A stretch of 64,000 nucleotides of DNA from Acidimicrobiales bacterium (GCA_037969565.1 JBBKXQ010000049.1:6495-70494); one strand, 5' to 3'. Positions 1,171 to 51,965 are shown, numbered from the stretch's first letter. The notes: a model not told the origin generated them from the letters alone. Translations and numbers: made by a program.

Positions 1171-1589
1171 GCCGGCAGAGCAGCCTGGAGTTCGGCGCGC
1201 AGTTCGGGTGTGAGGACAGCGCCGGTCTTTTCGACGAGCACGGCCATTTCGTAGGCGACCAGTCCCACGTCAGCTCCGGCTTGGGCCACGGTGGCCAGGA
1301 GTGATCCGTCACTGATGCCAGTGACGAAGAGGAAGGCGTTCTCCATCTCGACGATGACGTCGGTGACGGCGCCGCCTCCGAAGCGACCGGCGGCCCCGTA
1401 GGCCAAGCCGATGAGTCCTGAAGAGACGGCGGAGAACCGGTCGACGGCGTCGCGGTCGAGACCGGTCGAGGCGGCGATCGGTAGTCCGTCAGACGAGACC
1501 ACGACAGCTTCGGTCACTCCTGGTACTCGTTCGACGAAGCTGTTCACCAGCCAGTTGATGTTGCTGGCCTGTGTGCTCATCACGCTCAT
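1167..1589 (-). CDS. cvnB: Conservon roadblock/LC7 protein (CvnB/MglB-like)
   Basis: NWLVNSFVERVPGV, VVVSSDGL, DVGLVAYEMAVLV; ATGA overlaps on both sides. Confidence 0.92.
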   Translation of the reverse strand: MSVMSTQASNINWLVNSFVERVPGVTEAVVVSSDGLPIAASTGLDRDAVDRFSAVSSGLIGLAYGAAGRFGGGAVTDVIVEMENAFLFVTGISDGSLLATVAQAGADVGLVAYEMAVLVEKTGAVLTPELRAELQAALPA

Positions 1590-3859
1590 GAGGGTTCTCC
1601 GTTGCTTTCAAAGTCTTGTTGGAAGGCGTTCGGGTCGAACGAGTTGTCGCCGAACGAGTTGTCGTCGAAGGGGTTTTCTGCGGGGGTGCCGTCTAGTGAC
1701 GTGTCGAAGGCACCTGCATCGAAGGCACCTGCTCCATACGGACTTGCGTCGTCGGTGTTGTCACCCGAATAGGCCTCCTCGAGAGAGACCTCGTCGAGAG
1801 TGGCTCCACCGAACAGGGCGTCGTCGAACGAGGTGTCGTCGAGAGGGGTGTCTTTGCGAGGATCGTTCAACGGGTCGAAGGAACCGGATTCCGGAGCGGC
1901 ATCGACCGACTGGGTGAAGTCCGTCGGCATCGGCGGGGTCGCGAGGTCGGCCAACGGCTTTCCCTTCAAACCACTGCGATACCGAGCCAGCATCGAACGA
2001 ATCTCTTCCGGGTTCCGGACACTTGCGGCGACCGGTCGACCCTCGCTCACTGGAGCGCGATTCTGCGAACGATCTCGTTTGACGAGGCCGCTCGAAGTCC
2101 GCTCGGCCTCGGGCTGGAGTAGCGACTCCATCCCGGTATCGAACGACTCACCGGTGGGGATTGCGTCTTCGAGTTTGGACGTCTGACCTCCAACGGCGAC
2201 GGTTTCGGCCGAAACCTCGAGTGCAGCGGGATCAAAGGTCGGCGTCGTCCAGGGTTCGTCGTTGGCTTCTGCTGCAACCGGCGTCCGGGCCGCGGGCCGA
2301 CCGAAGATCATCGACGAGGATTCGCTGGGCGCGACCGGCGGGGGAACGTCCTCCGGTGCGGAATCGAAGTTGTTGGTGCCGAGGCCGAGCAATCTGGCCA
2401 GCGCGTCGGACTGCGGAACCTGGGCGGCCACGGGCGTCGGGGCCGCTGGCATCGGAGGAGCCTCGGGGACCGAGGGCATCGCCGCGGGCTCGGGCATCGC
2501 CACTGGTTCGGGCATCGCCACTGGTTCGGGCATCGGCGGTTGCGCCGCTTGGCCGGTGCCCACAGGAGTGGTCCCCCGTTGCGGCATGGCCGGGGGTGTC
2601 CACGGCTCCTCGTCGGGCATGTCGAACGTGGGTGCCGACGGCGACGGGCTCGGTGCAGGCGGGGCCGGCATCGATGTGTCGTCGTTGGCGGGGCTGGTTT
2701 CGGTCTGCGGTGTTGCGGGCTCGTCAGAGGGGCGACCACGATCGTGGCTCGGCAGTTCGCGTCCGGCCAGAACCGCCGCAGGAACCTCAGCGATGGCCGT
2801 GATGCCACCGCTCGCGGTGTGCATCAATTCGATGTTCACGCCAAGGCGGCGGGCGAGACGTCCGACGACAATGAATCCGAGCGAACGAGTCAGGCCAAGG
2901 CCGAGTTCGGGAGGGTTGGCCAAGACCTCGTTGGCATGGGCCAGCTGTTCGGTCGTCATGCCGATGCCGTGGTCGACACAGGAGATCAAGTATGAGCCGT
3001 CGGGATGGGTCACACCCGTGACTTCCACCGGGCTGTCGGGCGGGGAGAACTGCGTGGCGTTTTCGAGAACCTCGGAGAAGAGGTGGGCGAGATCGACCGC
3101 AGCCTGAGCGCCGATCTGGGCCTCTTCGACGCTGGTCAGTTTGACGTGTCGGTAGTCCTCGATCTCGCTCATTGCCACACGAAGCACGTCCGCAATGGCG
3201 ACGGGTCCGCCCCGTCGGCGGACCGATTCCGCTCCGGCCAGCACAAGAAGGCTCTCGGCGTTTCGACGCATTCGGGTGGCGAGGTGATCGAGACCGAACA
3301 GCTCTTCGAGTCGATCCGGATCTTCCTCACTCGATTCGAGCGCATCGATGACTTCGATCTGGCGGTCGAGCAGGCTCTGATTGCGGCGGGCCAGGTTGAC
3401 CACGAGTTCGGTCAGTCCCTCGCGGACCACGTTTCGTTGCGCCACCGCAAGCCCGGCGATGCCGTCTTGCACGGCGTTGAGTGACGAGATCAGGTGTGCA
3501 ACTTCGTCATTCTTGGATCCGCCGGAGAGCGGTTCGAACGATGGTGCCTCGGCTCCGGGGTTCTTGATCGTCTCGAGCAAGGCCGGGAGACGGTCTTCCG
3601 CCAGTTCTCGAGCGGCGCGTGCTGCGCTTTCGAGAGGATCGGTGATCGTGCGACCGATGACGACGACGGTGAGGGCGCTGAGGAGCACGGAGGCGAGAGC
3701 CACCACTCCCAGCGTGCGAATGTCGTCGATCAGCACATCGGCCGACACGGTGGTGCGTCGGCTGAGCAGCACGCTGTAGGCCGCCACGATCGCAAGGACA
3801 AAGAGCGGCGGGACGGCGATGGCGACTAATTTGGTTCGTAACTTGAGATTCTGGAACAT
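1586..3859 (-). CDS. cvnA: Conservon sensor histidine-kinase-like protein (CvnA): 2 TM, HAMP, HATPase, long disordered tail
   Basis: NLARRNQSLLDRQ, LDHLATRMRRNAESLLVLAG, LENATQFSPP, DHGIGM; tail motifs TSSGLVKR and RNPEEIRSMLARYRSG. Confidence 0.9.
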   Translation of the reverse strand: MFQNLKLRTKLVAIAVPPLFVLAIVAAYSVLLSRRTTVSADVLIDDIRTLGVVALASVLLSALTVVVIGRTITDPLESAARAARELAEDRLPALLETIKNPGAEAPSFEPLSGGSKNDEVAHLISSLNAVQDGIAGLAVAQRNVVREGLTELVVNLARRNQSLLDRQIEVIDALESSEEDPDRLEELFGLDHLATRMRRNAESLLVLAGAESVRRRGGPVAIADVLRVAMSEIEDYRHVKLTSVEEAQIGAQAAVDLAHLFSEVLENATQFSPPDSPVEVTGVTHPDGSYLISCVDHGIGMTTEQLAHANEVLANPPELGLGLTRSLGFIVVGRLARRLGVNIELMHTASGGITAIAEVPAAVLAGRELPSHDRGRPSDEPATPQTETSPANDDTSMPAPPAPSPSPSAPTFDMPDEEPWTPPAMPQRGTTPVGTGQAAQPPMPEPVAMPEPVAMPEPAAMPSVPEAPPMPAAPTPVAAQVPQSDALARLLGLGTNNFDSAPEDVPPPVAPSESSSMIFGRPAARTPVAAEANDEPWTTPTFDPAALEVSAETVAVGGQTSKLEDAIPTGESFDTGMESLLQPEAERTSSGLVKRDRSQNRAPVSEGRPVAASVRNPEEIRSMLARYRSGLKGKPLADLATPPMPTDFTQSVDAAPESGSFDPLNDPRKDTPLDDTSFDDALFGGATLDEVSLEEAYSGDNTDDASPYGAGAFDAGAFDTSLDGTPAENPFDDNSFGDNSFDPNAFQQDFESNGEPS

Positions 3860-3933
3860 AACCCTCTCGCAGGATCTGACGGACTAAAAGCATGATCGGC
3901 CTCTCGATCCCGACCTTGAGGTACCTTGCCCAG

Positions 3934-4629
3934 ATGTCTGAAGAAGCTCTCAGCGGGACGCTGGCCGATCTCCCGCTCGATGCAGTCCTGAGTTCCCTCG
4001 CTGCGAACGGCCGCACCGGGGTGCTCCGAGTTGGTGAAGGGAACGAGATTTGGCTCGATGAGGGCCAGATCTACCTCGTGCTCACGCCTACCGGGGCCGA
4101 CGCCGTTGCCGTTCTCTTCGGTGCGGGTGAGGGCACCCTCGAAGAGATTGCTTCGTTGCTGGCGAAACAATCCGACGTCTCGGCCACGCTCGCCGAGCGC
4201 AGCCCGGAGGCCGCCCGATCGCTGGAGCGACTGCTCCACGAACACAATCTGCACCTGCTGTTCGAGCTGCTGGTTCCCAGTGATCGTCCGTTCGTCTTCG
4301 AAGACAGCACGGTGCATGCTCTCGGTCATCGCTTTCGGGAGAGCACCGAGCATCTGGTCACTCAGGCCAAGCGCCGACTCGAGATCTGGTCCCAGATCGC
4401 GTCCCGGATCCCTAGCACGGCGGCCGCATTCAGGCTGGCCTCGATGTTGCCCCAGAACGCCGATGAGCGAACCGTCACGGCCGACGAATGGCGCTACCTC
4501 TCGCTTCTCGACGGCCATCGGTCTGTTGCCGACGTGATCACCACCACCAAAGAGAGCGCATTCCGCGTTTGTTCGTCGCTCTATCGCATGCTTCTCGAGG
4601 GAATGATCGAAGAAGTTCCGACCGCCTGA
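3934..4629 (+). CDS. DUF4388 (PATAN-like) domain protein
   Basis: LSGTLADLPLDAVLSSLAANGRTGVLRV..IWLDEGQI; C-terminal EWRYLSLLDGHRSVADV..LYRMLLEGMI wHTH; TACCTT 6 nt before ATG 3934. Confidence 0.8.
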   Translation: MSEEALSGTLADLPLDAVLSSLAANGRTGVLRVGEGNEIWLDEGQIYLVLTPTGADAVAVLFGAGEGTLEEIASLLAKQSDVSATLAERSPEAARSLERLLHEHNLHLLFELLVPSDRPFVFEDSTVHALGHRFRESTEHLVTQAKRRLEIWSQIASRIPSTAAAFRLASMLPQNADERTVTADEWRYLSLLDGHRSVADVITTTKESAFRVCSSLYRMLLEGMIEEVPTA

Positions 4630-4630
4630 T

Positions 4631-5248
4631 TCAGGGCGTGCGCATTCTCATCAACACGGCTTCGGCTTCCACATAGGTGAATCCGAAGTAGTGCATCATG
4701 GTGGCCGCGAGATCAGGATCCTCGAGATCCAACAGTGAGCCGATCAGCGGTATCTCGTTGGCCCGAAGGTAGACCGGTCGCGTTTCGCTGAGCGAGCGCA
4801 TGGATCGAAGGGCTGATGCGATGCTTCTGACGACGTGGGTGTTGTCGGCCGAACCGCAGTCGAGCCTGACCGGAGTCCAACCGATCCACAGGATCTTCTC
4901 TCCGTAGTCGATGTAGGGAGGGAGCCGGAGGGCCAGATCTCGGGAACCGAAAGCGGCGACCTTGGTGCCGTAGAGCTCGGCCATCTCCATCAACATGCCG
5001 GCCGACGGCGTTCGCAGTCCGGACTCGAAATGTCCCAGCTCGCGTTCGGAGATGCGGAGCGCACCTGCGGCGCCGGCTGCGGTGTGACCCATCCGACGGC
5101 GTGCCTTCTCGAGGGCCAGACCAATGGCCACTTGCGAATTCTCGCGGTAGGTCTCGATCGCGTTGATGTATGGCGCGAGGTCGGGCGGATGCGCCGACAC
5201 TTCTAGACCAGTGGTGGTGTTCCCGAACGCTGAGGGTGACATGGCCAC
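4631..5248 (-). CDS. XRE-family helix-turn-helix protein
   Basis: IGLALEKARRRMG..AAGALRISERELGHFESGLRTPS. Confidence 0.7.
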   Translation of the reverse strand: MAMSPSAFGNTTTGLEVSAHPPDLAPYINAIETYRENSQVAIGLALEKARRRMGHTAAGAAGALRISERELGHFESGLRTPSAGMLMEMAELYGTKVAAFGSRDLALRLPPYIDYGEKILWIGWTPVRLDCGSADNTHVVRSIASALRSMRSLSETRPVYLRANEIPLIGSLLDLEDPDLAATMMHYFGFTYVEAEAVLMRMRTP

Positions 5249-24693: not shown

Positions 24694-25689
24694 ATGGTCG
24701 CAACCCTGGTGCCTTCTGAAGCGGCGCTTCCTGATGTCCTTCCCACCGATCGGTTGAACGGGCGGGGGGTCGCCACTCGGGATCTGCGCAATCAACTTCG
24801 ACGGATCTCCAACGTCGGCAACGTGTTCACGGTGCTCGGTGCCCTGATCGCTTCCTTTGGCGTGATCATCGCCGCCGGCGTGATCAACACCTGGTGGGCC
24901 TATCTCGCGGCCTTCGTGTTGATGGCCCGAGGCCATGTGGGCCTCAACATCCTCGGCCACGAAGCGGCCCACCGTCTGCTCTTCAGCAAACAGTGGGCCA
25001 ACGACTTCGTCGGTCGTTGGGTGCTGGCCTATCCGTCGTTTCAGGCCATGGTGTCCTACCGCCGATCACACTTCGCCCATCACCGTGACGAACTCGGCCC
25101 CGAAGAGCCCGACCTGAGCCTCTACAGCGGCTATCCGATCCCGCCGGATTCGATTCGTCGGAAGCTCCGACGGGATCTCACCGGAGTCAGCGCGATGAAG
25201 AACTTTCGCGGGCTCTTCAGCGCCGCTCGCCGCGGCGCCCTCGAAGCCCGTCAGATCCTGGCCGTCCACGTGGTGTTCTTCGCCATCACCATCGCCTTCG
25301 GCCGACCCCTGGTCTACGTGGTATGGGTGGCCTCCTGGTCCACGCTGTGGCGGGTGTCGAATCGTCTGCGATCGATTGCCGAGCACGGCGGCATGGTCCG
25401 ATCCAAGGATCGCAGGCTCACCACCCACGTCATCAAGCAGAGCCCCCTCACCCGGTTCTGGATCGTTCCCTACAACACGGGCTGGCACCTGGCCCACCAT
25501 GTCGACATGGGTGTGCCTTGGCGCAACCTGCCTCGGCTGCACAACGAGCTGGTTGCGGCTGGTTGGGTCACCGAATCACTCGAATATCCGGGCTACCTCG
25601 CCTTCTGGCGGGCGGCCACGTCGGGCACGACCAAACAACCCGACGTCGAAGGTGCGGGATCGGGCAAGTCGAGCATGCTCGACTTCTGA
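24694..25689 (+). CDS. Fatty acid desaturase family protein
   Basis: His boxes HEAAH, HFAHH, HLAHH plus TM segments. Confidence 0.85.
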   Translation: MVATLVPSEAALPDVLPTDRLNGRGVATRDLRNQLRRISNVGNVFTVLGALIASFGVIIAAGVINTWWAYLAAFVLMARGHVGLNILGHEAAHRLLFSKQWANDFVGRWVLAYPSFQAMVSYRRSHFAHHRDELGPEEPDLSLYSGYPIPPDSIRRKLRRDLTGVSAMKNFRGLFSAARRGALEARQILAVHVVFFAITIAFGRPLVYVVWVASWSTLWRVSNRLRSIAEHGGMVRSKDRRLTTHVIKQSPLTRFWIVPYNTGWHLAHHVDMGVPWRNLPRLHNELVAAGWVTESLEYPGYLAFWRAATSGTTKQPDVEGAGSGKSSMLDF

Positions 25690-25726
25690 GCAGCCCCCGT
25701 CGATCAGTGACTGAGCGTTGAGGCTC

Positions 25727-26152
25727 TCAGGACGGTTCGAGGGCTCCGACGAGCCGGTCGACGAACTCGCTGGCTCCTCCGGCCAGATCGCTGCGCTTGA
25801 TCGCCATACCACCGATCACGTCGCCACCCCGACGTTCGACGATCCCGGCCAACTTCGCCAGGGTCTTGCCGGAGTCGAGGGCGTAGGTGCAGTAGACGGC
25901 AGTTTTCTTGCCATTGATCACCGGCAGATTGATGAGCCGGCGCACACCGGCCGGTTTCTGACCGACCACGAACAGTCCGTCGACCCACGATCCGATGATC
26001 ACGAGGTCGGCCTCGGAGAGTTGCTGGAGGTTGATGGCCTTGATCGAGCAGGCAATGGTGCTGATTCCCGACTCGGACAGCTCGGCGGCAATCATTTCAC
26101 CCGCCTTGCGGGTGTTGCCGGTCAACGATTCGTAGATCACGATCCCCTTCAT
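25727..26152 (-). CDS. Flavodoxin-domain protein
   Basis: IYESLTGNTRK FMN loop, ADLVIIGSW; TACCTT 7 nt before ATG 26152. Confidence 0.8.
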   Translation of the reverse strand: MKGIVIYESLTGNTRKAGEMIAAELSESGISTIACSIKAINLQQLSEADLVIIGSWVDGLFVVGQKPAGVRRLINLPVINGKKTAVYCTYALDSGKTLAKLAGIVERRGGDVIGGMAIKRSDLAGGASEFVDRLVGALEPS

Positions 26153-26184
26153 GGACCACAAGGTAGCCCACTATCCTGGCTGCC

Positions 26185-26460
26185 ATGTCCGACAAGCGCT
26201 ACCGCATTTCAATCACCTACTGCGTCCCGTGAAACTATTCAGCCCGCGCCGTGAGCGCGGTCAGTGATCTTCTCGGCAGCTACCAGCACGTGATCGACGA
26301 ACTCACGCTGGTCACCGGCAGTCGGGGCGTGTTCGACGTGGTCGTGAACGACGAGCTGATCTATTCGAAAGCGCAGACCGGCCGTCATGCCAACGGTGGT
26401 GAAGTGCTCGAGTTGATCCGCGAACTCGTCGGTCCCGACGTATCGGTGTACGGCACTTGA
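26185..26460 (+). CDS. Rdx/SelT-SelW-SelH family selenoprotein (CxxU, in-frame TGA at 26230-26232)
   Basis: MSDKRYRISITYCVP-U-NYSARAVSAVSDLL..LVTGSRGVFDVVVNDELIYSK; TATCCT 7 nt before ATG; SECIS-like hairpin follows. Confidence 0.85.
26244..26260 (+). promoter_or_regulatory. Putative bacterial SECIS element
   Basis: CCGCGC-cgtga-GCGCGG hairpin starting 11 nt after the in-frame UGA, with G in the loop. Confidence 0.65.
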
Positions 26461-27287
26461 TCGATGGTTGGCTTCCGGTAGAAGACCCGAACGATCCTCG
26501 CCTCGAGGTTTTCCAGGGACTTCGGGATCAGGTCTTGCGCCAGGAACGAGAAATGCCCAACGGCGACATGGCCGGGGTTTTCATTTCCGAGGGCGATGTG
26601 GTGGTCGGGCGGGCGTTGGCCGCCGGCTACGAGCTGGCATCGATCCTGGTCGACGCCAAACGCAGCAAACCGCTACCCGGGGTGGTGCCTCCAGACGTAC
26701 CGATCTACGCCGCCGGACCTGCGGTGTTGTCGAAGATCACCGGCTACCACTTGCACCGGGGGGCGCTCGCCTGCTTCCGCCGCCGGCCGGTCCCGTCAGT
26801 CGACGAGGTGCTCAGCGATCAGAGCATCCGCTCCATCGTGGTCTTGGAAGCCATCAACAACCCCACGAACATGGGAGTCATCCTCCGCTGCGCGGCCGGC
26901 CTCGGCATCGATGCCTTCGTCTTGGATCCCACCTGTTGCGATCCCCTCTATCGACGTTCCGGGCGTGTCTCCATGGGCGAGGCCTACGCGCTCCCCTACG
27001 CCCGCCTCGAGGCCCTCCCCGACGGTCTCGATGTACTCCGTCGTCATGGTTTCCGGCTGCTCGCCCTCACGCCAGGGCCGGATTCCATCGCTCTCGAAGA
27101 GCTCCGCCTCGGTGAAGAGGATCGTGTCGGTCTCCTGCTGGGGGCCGAGGGCCCGGGTCTGAGCCGCGGCGTGCTGGAGGCCGTGGATGAGAGCGTTCGG
27201 ATTGGGATGAGCGGGACCGTCGATTCCATCAACGTCGGCTCCGCCGCCGCCGTCGCGTTCTATGGCGTCCAACAAGCCAGGCGCTGA
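26457..27287 (+). CDS. TrmH/SpoU family RNA methyltransferase
   Basis: FISEG, TGYHLHRG, NNPTNMGVILR, DPLYRRSGRVSMG, GAEGPGL, DSINVGSAAA. Confidence 0.9.
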   Translation: MIDGWLPVEDPNDPRLEVFQGLRDQVLRQEREMPNGDMAGVFISEGDVVVGRALAAGYELASILVDAKRSKPLPGVVPPDVPIYAAGPAVLSKITGYHLHRGALACFRRRPVPSVDEVLSDQSIRSIVVLEAINNPTNMGVILRCAAGLGIDAFVLDPTCCDPLYRRSGRVSMGEAYALPYARLEALPDGLDVLRRHGFRLLALTPGPDSIALEELRLGEEDRVGLLLGAEGPGLSRGVLEAVDESVRIGMSGTVDSINVGSAAAVAFYGVQQARR

Positions 27288-28061
27288 AGAGACACCGGCG
27301 GCCGACATTTCGCGCACGGCGTTGCTGGCCTCGTCGTCCCGAGGGACCGATCGGGCGGCTCGAACGAGTGATCCCAAGGCTGCATTCACCTCGGTTGCGT
27401 TCGAAAGGCGGGCTGCGAAGGGGACCCTCGACTGGCGTTTGCCTGCCGGTTCGTCGACGGCCAGGGTGATTCCGTAGCGATCGATGGCCACCAGCTCGGC
27501 GTGACTGCCCAACCAACGGCCGCCGAGGGTCTTGGCGATCAGCAGGATGTTGTCGTCGATTCGGTCGGCCACGTCGGCCAGGAACTCCGGCCCGAAGTCG
27601 ACCAGCGGGTCTGGCTCGGCTCCGGCCACGTCCTCGGGTCGGAGCCAGCGCTCATTGTCGTCGTCATCGATCCAACGGACCCGTGTGGGCACGAGCCGGA
27701 ACCACGAATAGTCGAGGGACTCGACCTGCGCTCGGAGCTTCGGGTAGTGGTCGACCACCTGATCGGTCATTTCGATCTGCTGGAGACCGGGAACCGGGCG
27801 AAGGTCGCCCTGGAGGAGCAACCGGTCGCCCACGCTCATGGCCGCTCGTTGATCTTGTCGACCGCGGCTGGTGTGGGTGGAGAGATTGGACAGGACGGTG
27901 ACCGGCGTTCCGGAACCGTCGGCGATCATCGGCACCGTGCCGACGACCGGACGGCCATCGGTGTCGATCGTGGCGAGACTTGCCGAGTGATGGGCAGCCA
28001 GGGTGGTGCGGGCTCGCTCAGCCCAGGACGGTTCGAACACTCCACAAAGGTCGGCACACAA
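26796..28061 (-). CDS. HugZ/pyridoxamine oxidase-like protein with DUF2470-type domain; tail runs antisense into trmH
   Basis: AERARTTL, SLATI, LSNLSTHT, AEPDPL, AIDRYG, RVPF; conserved part ends near 27350; start uncertain. Confidence 0.7.
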   Translation of the reverse strand: MCADLCGVFEPSWAERARTTLAAHHSASLATIDTDGRPVVGTVPMIADGSGTPVTVLSNLSTHTSRGRQDQRAAMSVGDRLLLQGDLRPVPGLQQIEMTDQVVDHYPKLRAQVESLDYSWFRLVPTRVRWIDDDDNERWLRPEDVAGAEPDPLVDFGPEFLADVADRIDDNILLIAKTLGGRWLGSHAELVAIDRYGITLAVDEPAGKRQSRVPFAARLSNATEVNAALGSLVRAARSVPRDDEASNAVREMSAAGVSSAPGLLDAIERDGGGGADVDGIDGPAHPNPNALIHGLQHAAAQTRALGPQQETDTILFTEAELFESDGIRPWREGEQPETMTTEYIETVGEGLEAGVGERVGLAHGDTPGTSIEGIATGGIQDEGIDAEAGRAAEDDSHVRGVVDGFQDHDGADALIAEHLVD

Positions 28062-49677: not shown

Positions 49678-49718
49678 GAAATCGACGTTACCCCATGGCG
49701 CATGAGAGAATCGAGTCC

Positions 49719-51965
49719 GTGACTGAGACCAGAACTGCCATTCGAACGTGCCCGCTCTGCGAAGCCGGATGTGGACTCGAGATCACACTCGAATCGGCGA
49801 GCGATCGGGTGATCCGAATCCGGGGCGACCAGGAAGATGTGTTCTCGGCCGGGTTCATCTGCCCGAAAGGCACGACGTTGGGGCATCTCCACGCCGATCC
49901 CGATTGGCTTCGCTCGCCCCGGATCAAACGCAACGGACAATTCGAGGAGGCCACGTGGGAGGAAGCTTTCGCTCACATCGAAGCGAATCTCCTGCCGATC
50001 ATCAGCGAGAGTGGCAAGGATTCGATTGCGGTCTACCTCGGAAACCCAGGAGCCCACTCTCTCGCCCCCATGTTGCACAATCGCACGCTTCTGCGGGCCA
50101 TCGGAAGTCGCAACATCTTCTCTGCATCCACGGTCGATCAACGGCCGAAAGAGATCTCGGCGGCGCTCATGTTCGGGTCGGTCACGGTTCCCGTTCCCGA
50201 TCTCGATCGCACCGATTACCTCCTCATGCTCGGCGCCAACCCGTACGCCTCGAATGGGTCGCTCTGCACCGCCCCCGACTTTCCTGGACGGCTCGAGCGC
50301 ATTCAGGCTCGCGGTGGCAAGGTCGTCGTCGTCGACCCACGACGAAGTGAAACCGCAGCGAAGGCCGATCAGCACCTCGCTATTCGCCCTGGCACCGACG
50401 CCCATTTGCTGGCCGCGATCGCGTCCACCCTCTTCGACGAGGGACTCGCCGACGCCTCGAATGTGGCGGCCCACTGCAAGGGTCTCGATGATCTCTCCGT
50501 GCTCTTCGCTCCCTTCACTGCGGCATCGGTCGCGTCCGTCTGCGGCGTGGAAGCCGAAGAGATTCGGGTGTTGGCTCGCGAGCTCGCAGCAGCCCCGACG
50601 GCCGCGGTGTACGGCCGAATCGGCACCTGTACCCAGGAATTCGGAACCCTCGCATCCTGGTTGGTCGATGTGGTGAACATCCTCACCGGAAACCTCGACC
50701 GGGTCGGCGGTGCGATGTTTGCGAAGGGTGCGGCCGGGCAGCCGTCCACGAAAGGTGCCCCTGGCGTAGGGCGGGGATTCGTGATGGGGCGTTCGACGTC
50801 ACGGGTGAGTGGATCTCCCGAATCACTGGGCGAGTTCCCGGTCACCGTGCTGCCGGAGGAAATCGAGACGCCGGGCGAGGGGCAGGTGCGAGCGCTGATC
50901 ACCGTGGCGGGCAATCCTGTCAGCTCGAACCCCAACAGCAACCGACTCGACGCCGCGCTGGCGTCGCTCACGTTCATGGTGTCGATCGATCCCTACGTGA
51001 ACGAGACGACCCGGCACGCCGACGTGATCCTGCCCCCTCCCAGCCCCCTCCAGAAGAGCCACTACGACCTTGCCCTGCTCAACTTCGCCGTTCGAAACGT
51101 TGCCAACTACTCGGCGCCGGTGATCCCACTCGAGCCCGATCAGATCGGCGAGGACGAGATCATGCTCCGGCTGGCCGCCATCTTCGCTGGAGTCGGTGGT
51201 GAGGTCGATCTGGCCGGAATGAACGAAGCAAGCGCCCGCTCGATGCTCGAGAGTGGGGTGAGAAACGAGTACAGCAACATTGCCGGTCGGGATGTCGACG
51301 AACTGATGGAGATGCTCGACGGCCACGAGGGTGTCGAGACACTGCTCGACATCATGATTCGCACGGGTCCCTTCGGCGATGGTTTCGGCACCGATCCCGA
51401 GGGTCTGTCACTCGATGTTCTCGAGCGCAACCCGCACGGTGTCGACCTCGGCGCACTCGAGCCCAACCGGGTGCCGGACAACCTCCGAACCCCCGACGGC
51501 CTGATCGACGTCACTCCCCCGATCCTCGTGGCCGACGTCGCTCGTCTCGTGGCCTCGATCGATCGTGACTGGGACTCATCGATCGTTCTGGTCGGTCGTC
51601 GACACGTCAGGTCGAACAATTCCTGGATGCACAACATTCGAGTTCTCACGAAGGGCAAGAACCGCTGCACGATGCAGATCAACCCCGGTGATGCCGAGCG
51701 TCTGGGCATTGCAAACGGTGCCGCGGCCAAGGTGGTGTCCCGGGTTGGCGAGGTCACGATCACGGCCGAGGTCACCGACGGAATCCGACGTGGCGTGGTG
51801 AGCATCCCCCACGGATTCGGTCAGAACATGGACGGCGTGGAACTCTCGATCGCCTCTGACTACAACGGCGTCAACACCAACGTGCTCACCGATGAGTACT
51901 TGCGCGACGAGCTGAGCGGCAACATCGCCCTCAACGGAGTTCCGGTCACCGTCGCTCCGGCCTGA
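49719..51965 (+). CDS. Molybdopterin-dependent oxidoreductase
   Basis: TCPLCEAGCG..ICPKG Fe-S motif, GANP, VDPRR, NETTRHAD, RSNNSWMHN. Confidence 0.9.
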   Translation: MTETRTAIRTCPLCEAGCGLEITLESASDRVIRIRGDQEDVFSAGFICPKGTTLGHLHADPDWLRSPRIKRNGQFEEATWEEAFAHIEANLLPIISESGKDSIAVYLGNPGAHSLAPMLHNRTLLRAIGSRNIFSASTVDQRPKEISAALMFGSVTVPVPDLDRTDYLLMLGANPYASNGSLCTAPDFPGRLERIQARGGKVVVVDPRRSETAAKADQHLAIRPGTDAHLLAAIASTLFDEGLADASNVAAHCKGLDDLSVLFAPFTAASVASVCGVEAEEIRVLARELAAAPTAAVYGRIGTCTQEFGTLASWLVDVVNILTGNLDRVGGAMFAKGAAGQPSTKGAPGVGRGFVMGRSTSRVSGSPESLGEFPVTVLPEEIETPGEGQVRALITVAGNPVSSNPNSNRLDAALASLTFMVSIDPYVNETTRHADVILPPPSPLQKSHYDLALLNFAVRNVANYSAPVIPLEPDQIGEDEIMLRLAAIFAGVGGEVDLAGMNEASARSMLESGVRNEYSNIAGRDVDELMEMLDGHEGVETLLDIMIRTGPFGDGFGTDPEGLSLDVLERNPHGVDLGALEPNRVPDNLRTPDGLIDVTPPILVADVARLVASIDRDWDSSIVLVGRRHVRSNNSWMHNIRVLTKGKNRCTMQINPGDAERLGIANGAAAKVVSRVGEVTITAEVTDGIRRGVVSIPHGFGQNMDGVELSIASDYNGVNTNVLTDEYLRDELSGNIALNGVPVTVAPA

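Follow-up and report, generated by a model that had tools for sequence, protein, structure and literature searches.

The question raised by this locus is whether a TGA triplet near the beginning of a short reading frame ends a protein or is read as selenocysteine (Sec). The frame lies at 26185-26460 of a window of 64,000 nucleotides (the whole stretch of DNA that was analysed, JBBKXQ010000049.1:6495-70494) from the metagenome-assembled genome (MAG) of an Acidimicrobiales bacterium, GCA_037969565.1. An earlier note, made from the sequence alone, had read it as a hidden, leaderless selenoprotein gene, and on re-reading the sequence we located every feature that it had claimed just where it had placed them. 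We conclude, with a probability of about 0.93, that 26185-26460 encodes a SelW-like (Rdx-family) thiol/selenol oxidoreductase of 91 residues with a predicted Cys13-Val-Pro-Sec16 centre. Two further questions follow, namely whether its mRNA begins directly with the start codon and whether the RNA methyltransferase gene that overlaps its end is translated in dependence on Sec decoding.

The reading frame and its protein family

The frame starting with the ATG at 26185-26187 is translated as MSDKRYRISITYC-V-P-TGA-NYSARAV, which is MSDKRYRISITYCVP before the TGA at 26230-26232 and NYSARAVSAVSDLL... behind it, up to the terminal TGA at 26458-26460. No other ATG, GTG or TTG occurs from the preceding in-frame stop to the Cys codon. 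The translation bears out that the frame continues into the 69-aa open reading frame (ORF) starting at 26251, as the earlier note had stated. A plain ORF list contains only this 69-aa piece, which begins with the GTG at 26251-26253 inside the loop of the hairpin described below and is devoid of the redox motif. The protein database likewise holds the product of this gene and most of its 67 relatives as 69-aa forms starting right after the TGA (P0002 is the 69-aa form), some of the relatives being named "selenoprotein W-related protein" or "Rdx family protein". Because the database forms begin behind the TGA, the gene is systematically truncated in annotation.

The readthrough product matches the Pfam family Rdx (PF10262) with an E-value of 2.7e-18 and 66.4 bits against a cut-off of 22.6, and the match covers positions 1-74 of the 74-position profile and residues 7-80 of the protein, spanning the TGA. 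The NCBIfam model TIGR02174 ("CXXU_selWTH") scored 52.6 bits against a cut-off of 34.2, and the assignment to the Rdx/SelW family made in the earlier note is thereby upheld by two models over their cut-offs. The product scored 73.5 with the Campylobacter-type equivalog NF041051, under its cut-off of 88, and therefore stands outside that subfamily. The CxxU motif near the N-terminus, C13-V-P-U16, aligns with the CVPC of the database proteins P0003 and P0005, and a comparison with sequences of the Protein Data Bank (PDB) places the CxxC of 2fa8 and 3dex opposite CVPU; two further PDB entries carry the titles "Selenoprotein W-related protein" (2p0g) and "SelT/selW/selH selenoprotein domain" (2obk). 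Where Cys-form homologues and solved Rdx proteins have the second Cys of their CxxC, this gene thus has the TGA, at the second redox position to which it had been assigned from the sequence.

Conservation of the TGA codon

We compared the locus in a set of 60 related genomes and in a wider set, the 80 best loci from a scan of one genome per species; at least two loci occur in both sets (L059 = L021 and L060 = L025, by contig and coordinates). Matches were obtained in 29 of the 60 related genomes, 28 of them with exactly one in-frame TGA and the 29th a fragment of 28 residues. The CxxU context was present in 29/30 loci, as CVPU in 26, CTAU in two and CVTU in one. In the wider set, the Sec codon was TGA in 79 of the 80 best public loci and TGT in a single one, L062, titled as a Candidatus Microthrix MAG. 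Cys forms with CVPC are accordingly known from P0003 and P0005 in the protein database and from L062 at the DNA level. The loci closest to ours are titled as Acidimicrobiales, Acidimicrobiia or Candidatus Microthrix MAGs, and the more distant ones belong to Chloroflexota. Judged by these titles, the organism would be an uncultured actinobacterium of marine type within Acidimicrobiales.

A recoded codon should stay fixed where an ordinary stop varies, and this contrast was found: the internal codon is TGA in 27/27 aligned loci, while these 27 genes terminate with TGA in 17 cases, TAG in seven and TAA in three. The 45 nt before the TGA encode the motif I-T-Y-C-V-P in 25/27 loci. All 28 other genomes with the TGA-containing gene have selA over its cut-off, and none of the 14 genomes in which selA did not exceed the cut-off contains the gene. 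A lack of Sec machinery, with TGC or TGT in all homologues, had been named as what would mark the TGA as a nonsense mutation or read error; we clearly found the reverse, a complete machinery and TGA in 79/80 loci.

We rejected an alternative genetic code with TGA as a sense codon, as TGA ends this gene and 17/27 orthologues at positions where the others use TAG or TAA; selA and selB, which contain no internal stops, also speak against it. Three loci deserve separate mention. L062 looks like a recent Sec-to-Cys replacement. L046, from a genome of 66% completeness (G022), ends 61 codons after Sec with an altered C-terminus and a second TGA, probably by a frameshift or an assembly error. L105, titled as a Dehalococcoidia MAG, is nearly identical in type to the marine Acidimicrobiaceae loci L104 and L106, including the TANNNT box described below, and is possibly a mis-binned contig or the result of a transfer.

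A covarying hairpin behind the TGA

The hairpin CCGCGC-cgtga-GCGCGG reported in the earlier note is present at 26244-26260. It begins 11 nt after the TGA, with 17 nt separating UGA and loop and a centroid energy of -11.2 kcal/mol. For the bacterial selenocysteine insertion sequence (bSECIS), the legend of Figure 2 in PMC13188914 quotes a loop of 3-9 nt and an upper stem of 4-16 bp, and the constraints further quoted from that review are a G at loop position 1 or 2 with G or U behind it, and 16-37 nt between UGA and loop at an energy of at most -7.5 kcal/mol. The hairpin lies within all four of these quoted constraints, with its loop of 5 nt, its stem of 6 bp, C-G-U at the start of the loop, and 17 nt together with -11.2 kcal/mol.

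RNAalifold, applied to the 27 loci in an ungapped alignment, predicted just this helix. In this register 90.7% of the cells were paired, compared to 11.7-65.4% in slid registers, and five of the six pairs were changed on both sides, in a total of 19 cells. None of 500 shuffles reached the observed percentage of paired cells, the number of both-side-changed cells or the covariation score, and four of 500 had at least as many pairs altered on both sides; the "further pair types" measure was not above the shuffles (479/500). Several of the compensatory changes alter both encoded amino acids (Arg..Ala to His/Tyr..Val), and synonymous sites are fixed at the same time: the loop codon is GTG in 27/27 loci, a codon used for 35% of the Val residues genome-wide, and the third base of the preceding codon is C in 27/27. 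Because the compensatory changes affect the protein and the synonymous sites are invariant, we argue for a constraint acting on the RNA. The wider set has 6/6 pairs in the same register in 39 of its 79 TGA loci and 5/6 in another 24, among them Anaerolineales loci with a different stem, CCGGGC...GCCUGG, around an identical CGUGA loop. Scanning the whole window against Rfam at gathering thresholds gave no matches, including none to a bacterial SECIS family, which is uninformative either way.

The spacer directly behind the UGA (26233-26240; columns 13-20 of alignment A1) is also conserved in its nucleotides, as UGA-RAC-UAU-UC, and its Tyr codon is TAT in 25/27 loci, compared to a share of TAT of only 26% among the Tyr codons of the genome. 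This spacer might provide sequence context for the decoding of Sec or contribute to a lower helix of the SECIS.

Sec machinery and further candidate selenoprotein genes in the genome

The genome consists of 203 contigs with a completeness of 94% and a G+C content of 63%. It contains selA (391 bits) and selB (289 bits) as adjoining genes on contig 70 and selD (376 bits), all over their cut-offs, as well as a gene for tRNA-Sec on contig 70 (64 bits), which ARAGORN lists as tRNA-SeC with the anticodon tca. As far as genes can show, the organism decodes Sec, and the corresponding assumption of the earlier note is confirmed by finding all four genes in the same genome. The UGA is conserved and aligned with Cys, a covarying hairpin follows it, and SelB, SelA, SelD and tRNA-Sec are encoded; we therefore propose that UGA16 is recoded to Sec via SelB binding to this hairpin, as would follow from the established bacterial Sec pathway.

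Further candidate selenoprotein genes occur in the same genome. The selD gene (G000:C2:16551-17474, plus strand) contains an in-frame TGA (L010 1531-1533) in the context SHGAGUGCK, which we take to be the known Sec/Cys site of SelD, and SelD is, judged by its gene, a selenoprotein here. A hairpin, GGCGCA/CGUGG/UGCGCC, follows 26 nt after this TGA and shares the CGUG loop core with the SelW-like gene. An FdhA-like molybdopterin oxidoreductase gene (G000:C25, minus strand, within 1500-5200; L052) has one in-frame TGA (...NNIDSCNRTUHAPSVVG...) and, by eye, a hairpin GUCGUC/GGUCU/GGCGAC about 12 nt behind it. A Prx-like gene (G000:C93, minus strand; offset 1292 on the reverse strand) matches the Pfam family AhpC/TSA with an E-value of 3.1e-08, shows a U-x-x-C motif (...RGDWUPYC...) and has an 8-bp hairpin with the loop CGUGC 12 nt after the TGA; it is a probable fourth selenoprotein gene. 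In a regular-expression scan of the genome for SECIS elements with CGUG loops, only the SelW-like gene and one Prx-like gene looked real among 12 matches, and the other ten, with low-complexity, Arg-rich translations, are probably due to chance. The window itself holds another molybdopterin oxidoreductase gene at about 49716-50453 on the plus strand (C49:56210-56947), which matches the formate dehydrogenase alpha subunit weakly and contains no TGA.

Table 1. Coordinates of the SelW-like gene, its elements and its neighbours in the window
Feature	Position	Strand	Description
SelW-like (Rdx family) selenoprotein gene (predicted)	26185..26460	+	91 codons and a stop codon; redox motif CVPU with Sec as codon 16
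TGC, Cys13	26221..26223	+	first residue of CxxU; invariant in 27/27 aligned loci
TGA, codon 16, read as Sec (predicted)	26230..26232	+	kept among relatives
bSECIS hairpin (predicted)	26244..26260	+	6-bp stem of 26244-26249 (CCGCGC) with 26255-26260 (GCGCGG); loop CGUGA, 26250-26254
69-aa ORF as in public databases	26251..26460	+	truncated call; GTG start inside the SECIS loop
-10-like box TATCCT (TANNNT)	26172..26177	+	7 nt before the ATG; putative promoter of a leaderless transcript
-10-like box TACCTT	26160..26165	-	in back-to-back arrangement with the SelW box (6 nt between them); flavodoxin ATG follows after 7 nt
Flavodoxin-like gene, divergent neighbour	25727..26152	-	Pfam Flavodoxin_3, E 9.9e-09; present in 22/27 loci
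SpoU/TrmH-superfamily RNA 2'-O-methyltransferase gene (RlmB/TsnR-like)	26457..27287	+	Pfam SpoU_methylase, E 8.9e-29

A conserved leaderless signature

The sequence TATCCT, to which the earlier note had pointed 7 nt before the ATG, is present and has the form TANNNT, and the 18 nt before the ATG contain no 4-mer resembling a Shine-Dalgarno (SD) motif. In Actinobacteria, TANNNT at a distance of about 12 nt from the start codon is described as a signature of leaderless genes (PMC3160421), and TANNNT without a -35 element as the dominant mycobacterial promoter (PMC3898074, on M. tuberculosis). Among the relatives, the box was found 12-14 nt before the assigned start in 24/27 loci; one more locus, L040, agrees if a neighbouring ATG is taken as its start, and SD-like motifs replace the box in two of the three misses. 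The wider set divided in the same sense, with TANNNT in 39 and SD-like motifs in four of the 42 loci titled as Actinomycetota, against TANNNT in three and SD-like motifs in 37 of the 38 loci with other titles, which are mostly Chloroflexota. Several candidate starts per locus were tried in this set, which loosens the counts, those for SD-like motifs most. As a background, TANNNT occurred at 1.1% of random positions and before 90 of the 3289 ATG triplets of the same loci, and SD-like 4-mers at about 12%.

These observations led us to consider it probable that the mRNA of the SelW-like gene is leaderless, and they support the earlier note on this point by the conserved distance of the box and the missing SD motif. 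The first transcribed base would then be the A of the ATG, with the box 7 nt in front of it as the promoter element, and the SECIS would occupy roughly nt 60-76 of the RNA. A 70S ribosome loading at the 5' end would have read 15 codons on reaching the UGA. The Sec codon, number 16 here, is found at codons 11-21 in the relatives. A limited literature search by title and abstract returned no paper on leaderless mRNAs of bacterial selenoproteins, which is not proof of their absence, and the word "leaderless" does not occur in the 2026 review PMC13188914.

The ATG of the divergent flavodoxin-like gene is 32 nt away from that of the SelW-like gene (intergenic region 26153-26184). By script, TANNNT was found 12-14 nt before the flavodoxin start in 11/21 loci, and four more loci have, by eye, a box 6-8 nt before an ATG within the upstream stretch, which makes a leaderless mRNA probable for the flavodoxin-like gene as well. 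A gene of the fatty-acid desaturase family (24694-25689, plus strand) is located upstream of it.

The downstream methyltransferase gene

The stop codon of the SelW-like gene overlaps the TTG start (26457-26459) of the methyltransferase gene in the sequence TTGA, as the earlier note had stated. Its assignment of the enzyme to the TrmH family holds at the level of the superfamily but not beyond it, since the best NCBIfam match is to RlmB with 89 bits, under the cut-off, and the protein stays below every equivalog cut-off. Its matches in the PDB are 4x3l, 9h1k and 1ipa, and the N-terminus is conserved from residue 1 in several relatives. The gene follows the SelW-like gene in 20/27 of the relatives' loci and in only 4/80 loci of the wider set, so we regard this synteny as a trait of the family.

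The methyltransferase start was assigned in 18 loci, in some of them by extrapolation from the alignment. The gap between the SelW stop and this start amounts to 0-1 nt in four loci and is no larger than 32 nt in 15/18, and the start codons are TTG in nine, GTG in five and ATG in four. No TANNNT box at leaderless distance was found before the methyltransferase in any of the 18 loci, and an SD-like 4-mer was present in five. The TTG of our locus is preceded by neither, and the pair shows what is expected of coupled genes, overlapping stop and start codons and a downstream start without an SD motif or promoter-like box of its own.

Nine genomes of the family without the SelW-like gene were examined by eye from their sequences, and in 9/9 a TANNNT box is located 6-8 nt before a start codon. 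In six of them (G014, G027, G034, G011, G024 and G010) the box directly precedes the methyltransferase start, G010 having 21 extra in-frame codons at the N-terminal end. In the other three, the box and an ATG open a remnant ORF of 9-12 codons. The remnant of G020 (L144, about 480-570) begins with MSDDR like SelW and ends just after the methyltransferase TTG, which lies inside it; the TGA of that in G007 (L140 925-968) overlaps the methyltransferase GTG; and that in G006 (L139 1160-1226) ends 14 nt before the GTG, which is abutted by the old SelW end ...GGCACCTGA. Two of the remnant loci keep the SelW end ...GGCAC(C/G)TGA and one the MSDDR start, and these ORFs seem to have arisen from the selenoprotein gene by internal deletion. 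With a box before either the methyltransferase or a remnant, one and the same promoter seems to drive the methyltransferase gene with or without SelW, and a retained 5'-terminal ORF ending at the methyltransferase start fits a possible coupling by termination and reinitiation.

It is probable, at somewhat lower confidence than the leaderless start, that the SpoU-family methyltransferase is encoded on the same transcript as SelW. That it is translated mainly by ribosomes which finish SelW and restart at the overlapping TTG appears to us an evenly balanced proposition. If such reinitiation holds, the output of methyltransferase would follow the efficiency of Sec decoding, and its dependence on decoding at UGA16 would follow by logic. 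The strictest form of the model, in which the methyltransferase has neither promoter nor ribosome binding site of its own and is made only by ribosomes passing UGA16 as Sec, while lineages losing SelW kept a leaderless mini-ORF or a leaderless methyltransferase gene to preserve expression, is doubtful. An action of the methyltransferase on tRNA-Sec was considered and rejected as unsupported, as orthologues of 56% identity are present in G011, G024 and G034, all without selA.

Alternative explanations

If the TGA were a true stop, the real gene would be the 69-aa ORF from the GTG at 26251, or the locus would hold a pseudogene, and the frame upstream would be a coincidence. Gene callers and public databases agree with this by listing the 69-aa form here and in most relatives, and folding of this sequence alone gives the hairpin no significance: a fold of 26230-26290 (61 nt) gave z = +0.8, and 156/200 shuffles folded at least as well, so we relied on covariation instead. 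Besides this fold, two observations weaken the case for recoding, namely the common phylogeny of the relatives, by which the counts overstate independence, and the intact hairpin with 6/6 pairs in L062, the only Cys-form locus available as DNA, so that a tie of the hairpin to the TGA is not separable there from one to the conserved R-A-V-S-A peptide. A coincidental frame is nevertheless at odds with the I-T-Y-C-V-P motif upstream of the TGA in 25/27 loci, the alignment of the Rdx profile from its position 1 across the TGA, Cys-form homologues that read straight through, an internal codon that is never TAG or TAA, unlike the terminal stop, and a Sec machinery that is present and co-occurs with the gene; moreover, the 69-aa form would lack the redox motif. 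We therefore give almost no credence to a true stop. The selenoprotein gene could also be transcribed with an mRNA leader from a promoter in or beyond the flavodoxin gene and be translated by SD-less initiation, with the TANNNT box being, for example, part of the flavodoxin promoter region. Two results count against a leaderless start in this respect: a strict two-hexamer sigma-70 scan of 25600-27500 found no promoters, and no RNA run containing the locus (25700-27300) appeared among the records matching it, the three matches being contigs of unspecified kind from one study that share 20-31% of its words, so that the 5' end is inferred; in addition, the intergenic region has only 32 nt and is common to another gene. 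A leader would leave unexplained why TANNNT keeps a fixed distance of 12-14 nt from the SelW start in 24/27 and 39/42 loci at a background frequency of 1-3%, why the box also occurs in loci without a flavodoxin neighbour (L040-L042 and most of L062-L107), and why the Chloroflexota orthologues switch to SD-like motifs and lose the box, and there is no SD-like motif in the 18 nt upstream of our own gene. We consider a leader unlikely.

The methyltransferase may be translated independently, by internal initiation at the TTG or from a separate transcript, and the overlap would then reflect genome compaction without any link to selenium. Several data speak against coupling. The overlap is not conserved: a gap of -4 nt was found only in this genome among the 18 loci, the relatives have gaps of 0 to 104 nt, and these amount to 65-104 nt in 3/18. 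Methyltransferase orthologues are present in genomes of the family without SelW (G006, G007, G010, G014, G020 and G027) and in others without selA (G011, G024 and G034), and a strict selenium dependence of this gene would be risky for the cell. The SD-like 4-mer before the start in 5/18 relatives is also in keeping with independent initiation. It is harder to reconcile with the missing TANNNT boxes (0/18), the short gaps (15/18 up to 32 nt) and the TTG or GTG starts in 14/18 loci, and with the SelW-less relatives, 9/9 of which have the box 6-8 nt before a start codon that opens the methyltransferase in six cases and a remnant ORF in three. Independent translation thus falls a little short of an even chance in our estimate. 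The selenium-coupled methyltransferase, which the earlier note had offered as a possibility, gains from the tight stop-start arrangement and the leaderless mini-ORF remnants and loses from the restriction of the 4-nt overlap to this genome.

Significance and comparison with known systems

The SelW-like CxxU family was known already, and what is added here is a mis-annotated member in Acidimicrobiales. Because such genes are stored as 69-aa stubs without the catalytic Cys-x-x-Sec centre, the selenoproteomes of Acidimicrobiia are undercounted. The Acidimicrobiia are a widespread marine and freshwater group, and the SelW-like family is known as the commonest marine bacterial selenoprotein. Three features appear to go beyond the textbook: the conserved leaderless signature in a gene which would need recoding 15 codons in; the frozen CGUG loop common to other predicted selenoprotein genes of the genome; and the arrangement of putative promoter, first cistron and methyltransferase, with remnants in relatives. 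The CGUG loop, which the SelW-like, Prx-like and SelD genes have in common, may be a SECIS signature of the clade and usable to find more selenoproteins. If the leaderless start is true, SelB-dependent recoding would work 11-21 codons after a 5'-terminal AUG on 70S-initiated mRNAs. If the coupling is true, a recoding event would set the dose of a downstream RNA methyltransferase gene, and in the strictest form of the model the synthesis of a widely retained RNA-modifying enzyme would be gated by selenium supply and Sec-decoding efficiency.

A spacing of 11 nt is also known from E. coli fdhF. The SECIS of that gene is likewise a stem-loop within the coding region, directly behind the UGA; the hairpin in the window differs by its short 6-bp stem and the absence of a bulged U, and binding of SelB to it is predicted. 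The solved Cys-form Rdx proteins Atu0228 (2fa8), SAV_2001 (3dex), 2p0g and 2obk are homologous over nearly the whole length, with E-values of 1.8e-09 to 3.5e-04, and carry Cys where the protein from the window has a predicted Sec.

Bacterial SelW-like selenoproteins with CxxU are described in the selenoproteome surveys of Zhang and Gladyshev (PMC1794560 and PMC2398784), the former listing the family with ten bacterial members at that time; a further survey of theirs is PMC1088965. The survey text, in the parts covered, holds no mention of a leaderless signature or a fixed CGUG loop, and the supplementary tables may list close relatives. Our gene has in common with these proteins (PF10262, earlier pfam05169; TIGR02174) the domain, the position of CxxU, the UGA-coded Sec with a bSECIS directly downstream in the ORF, as predicted here, and a length of about 90 residues. 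It does not differ from them in kind; particular to it are the origin, an Acidimicrobiales MAG, and the annotation, which is restricted to a 69-aa fragment. With the leaderless mRNAs of Actinobacteria, our locus shares TANNNT at about 12 nt from the start codon, and like them it has neither an SD motif nor a recognisable -35 element; the difference is that the putative leaderless cistron described here would need recoding of a UGA 15 codons after its 5' end.

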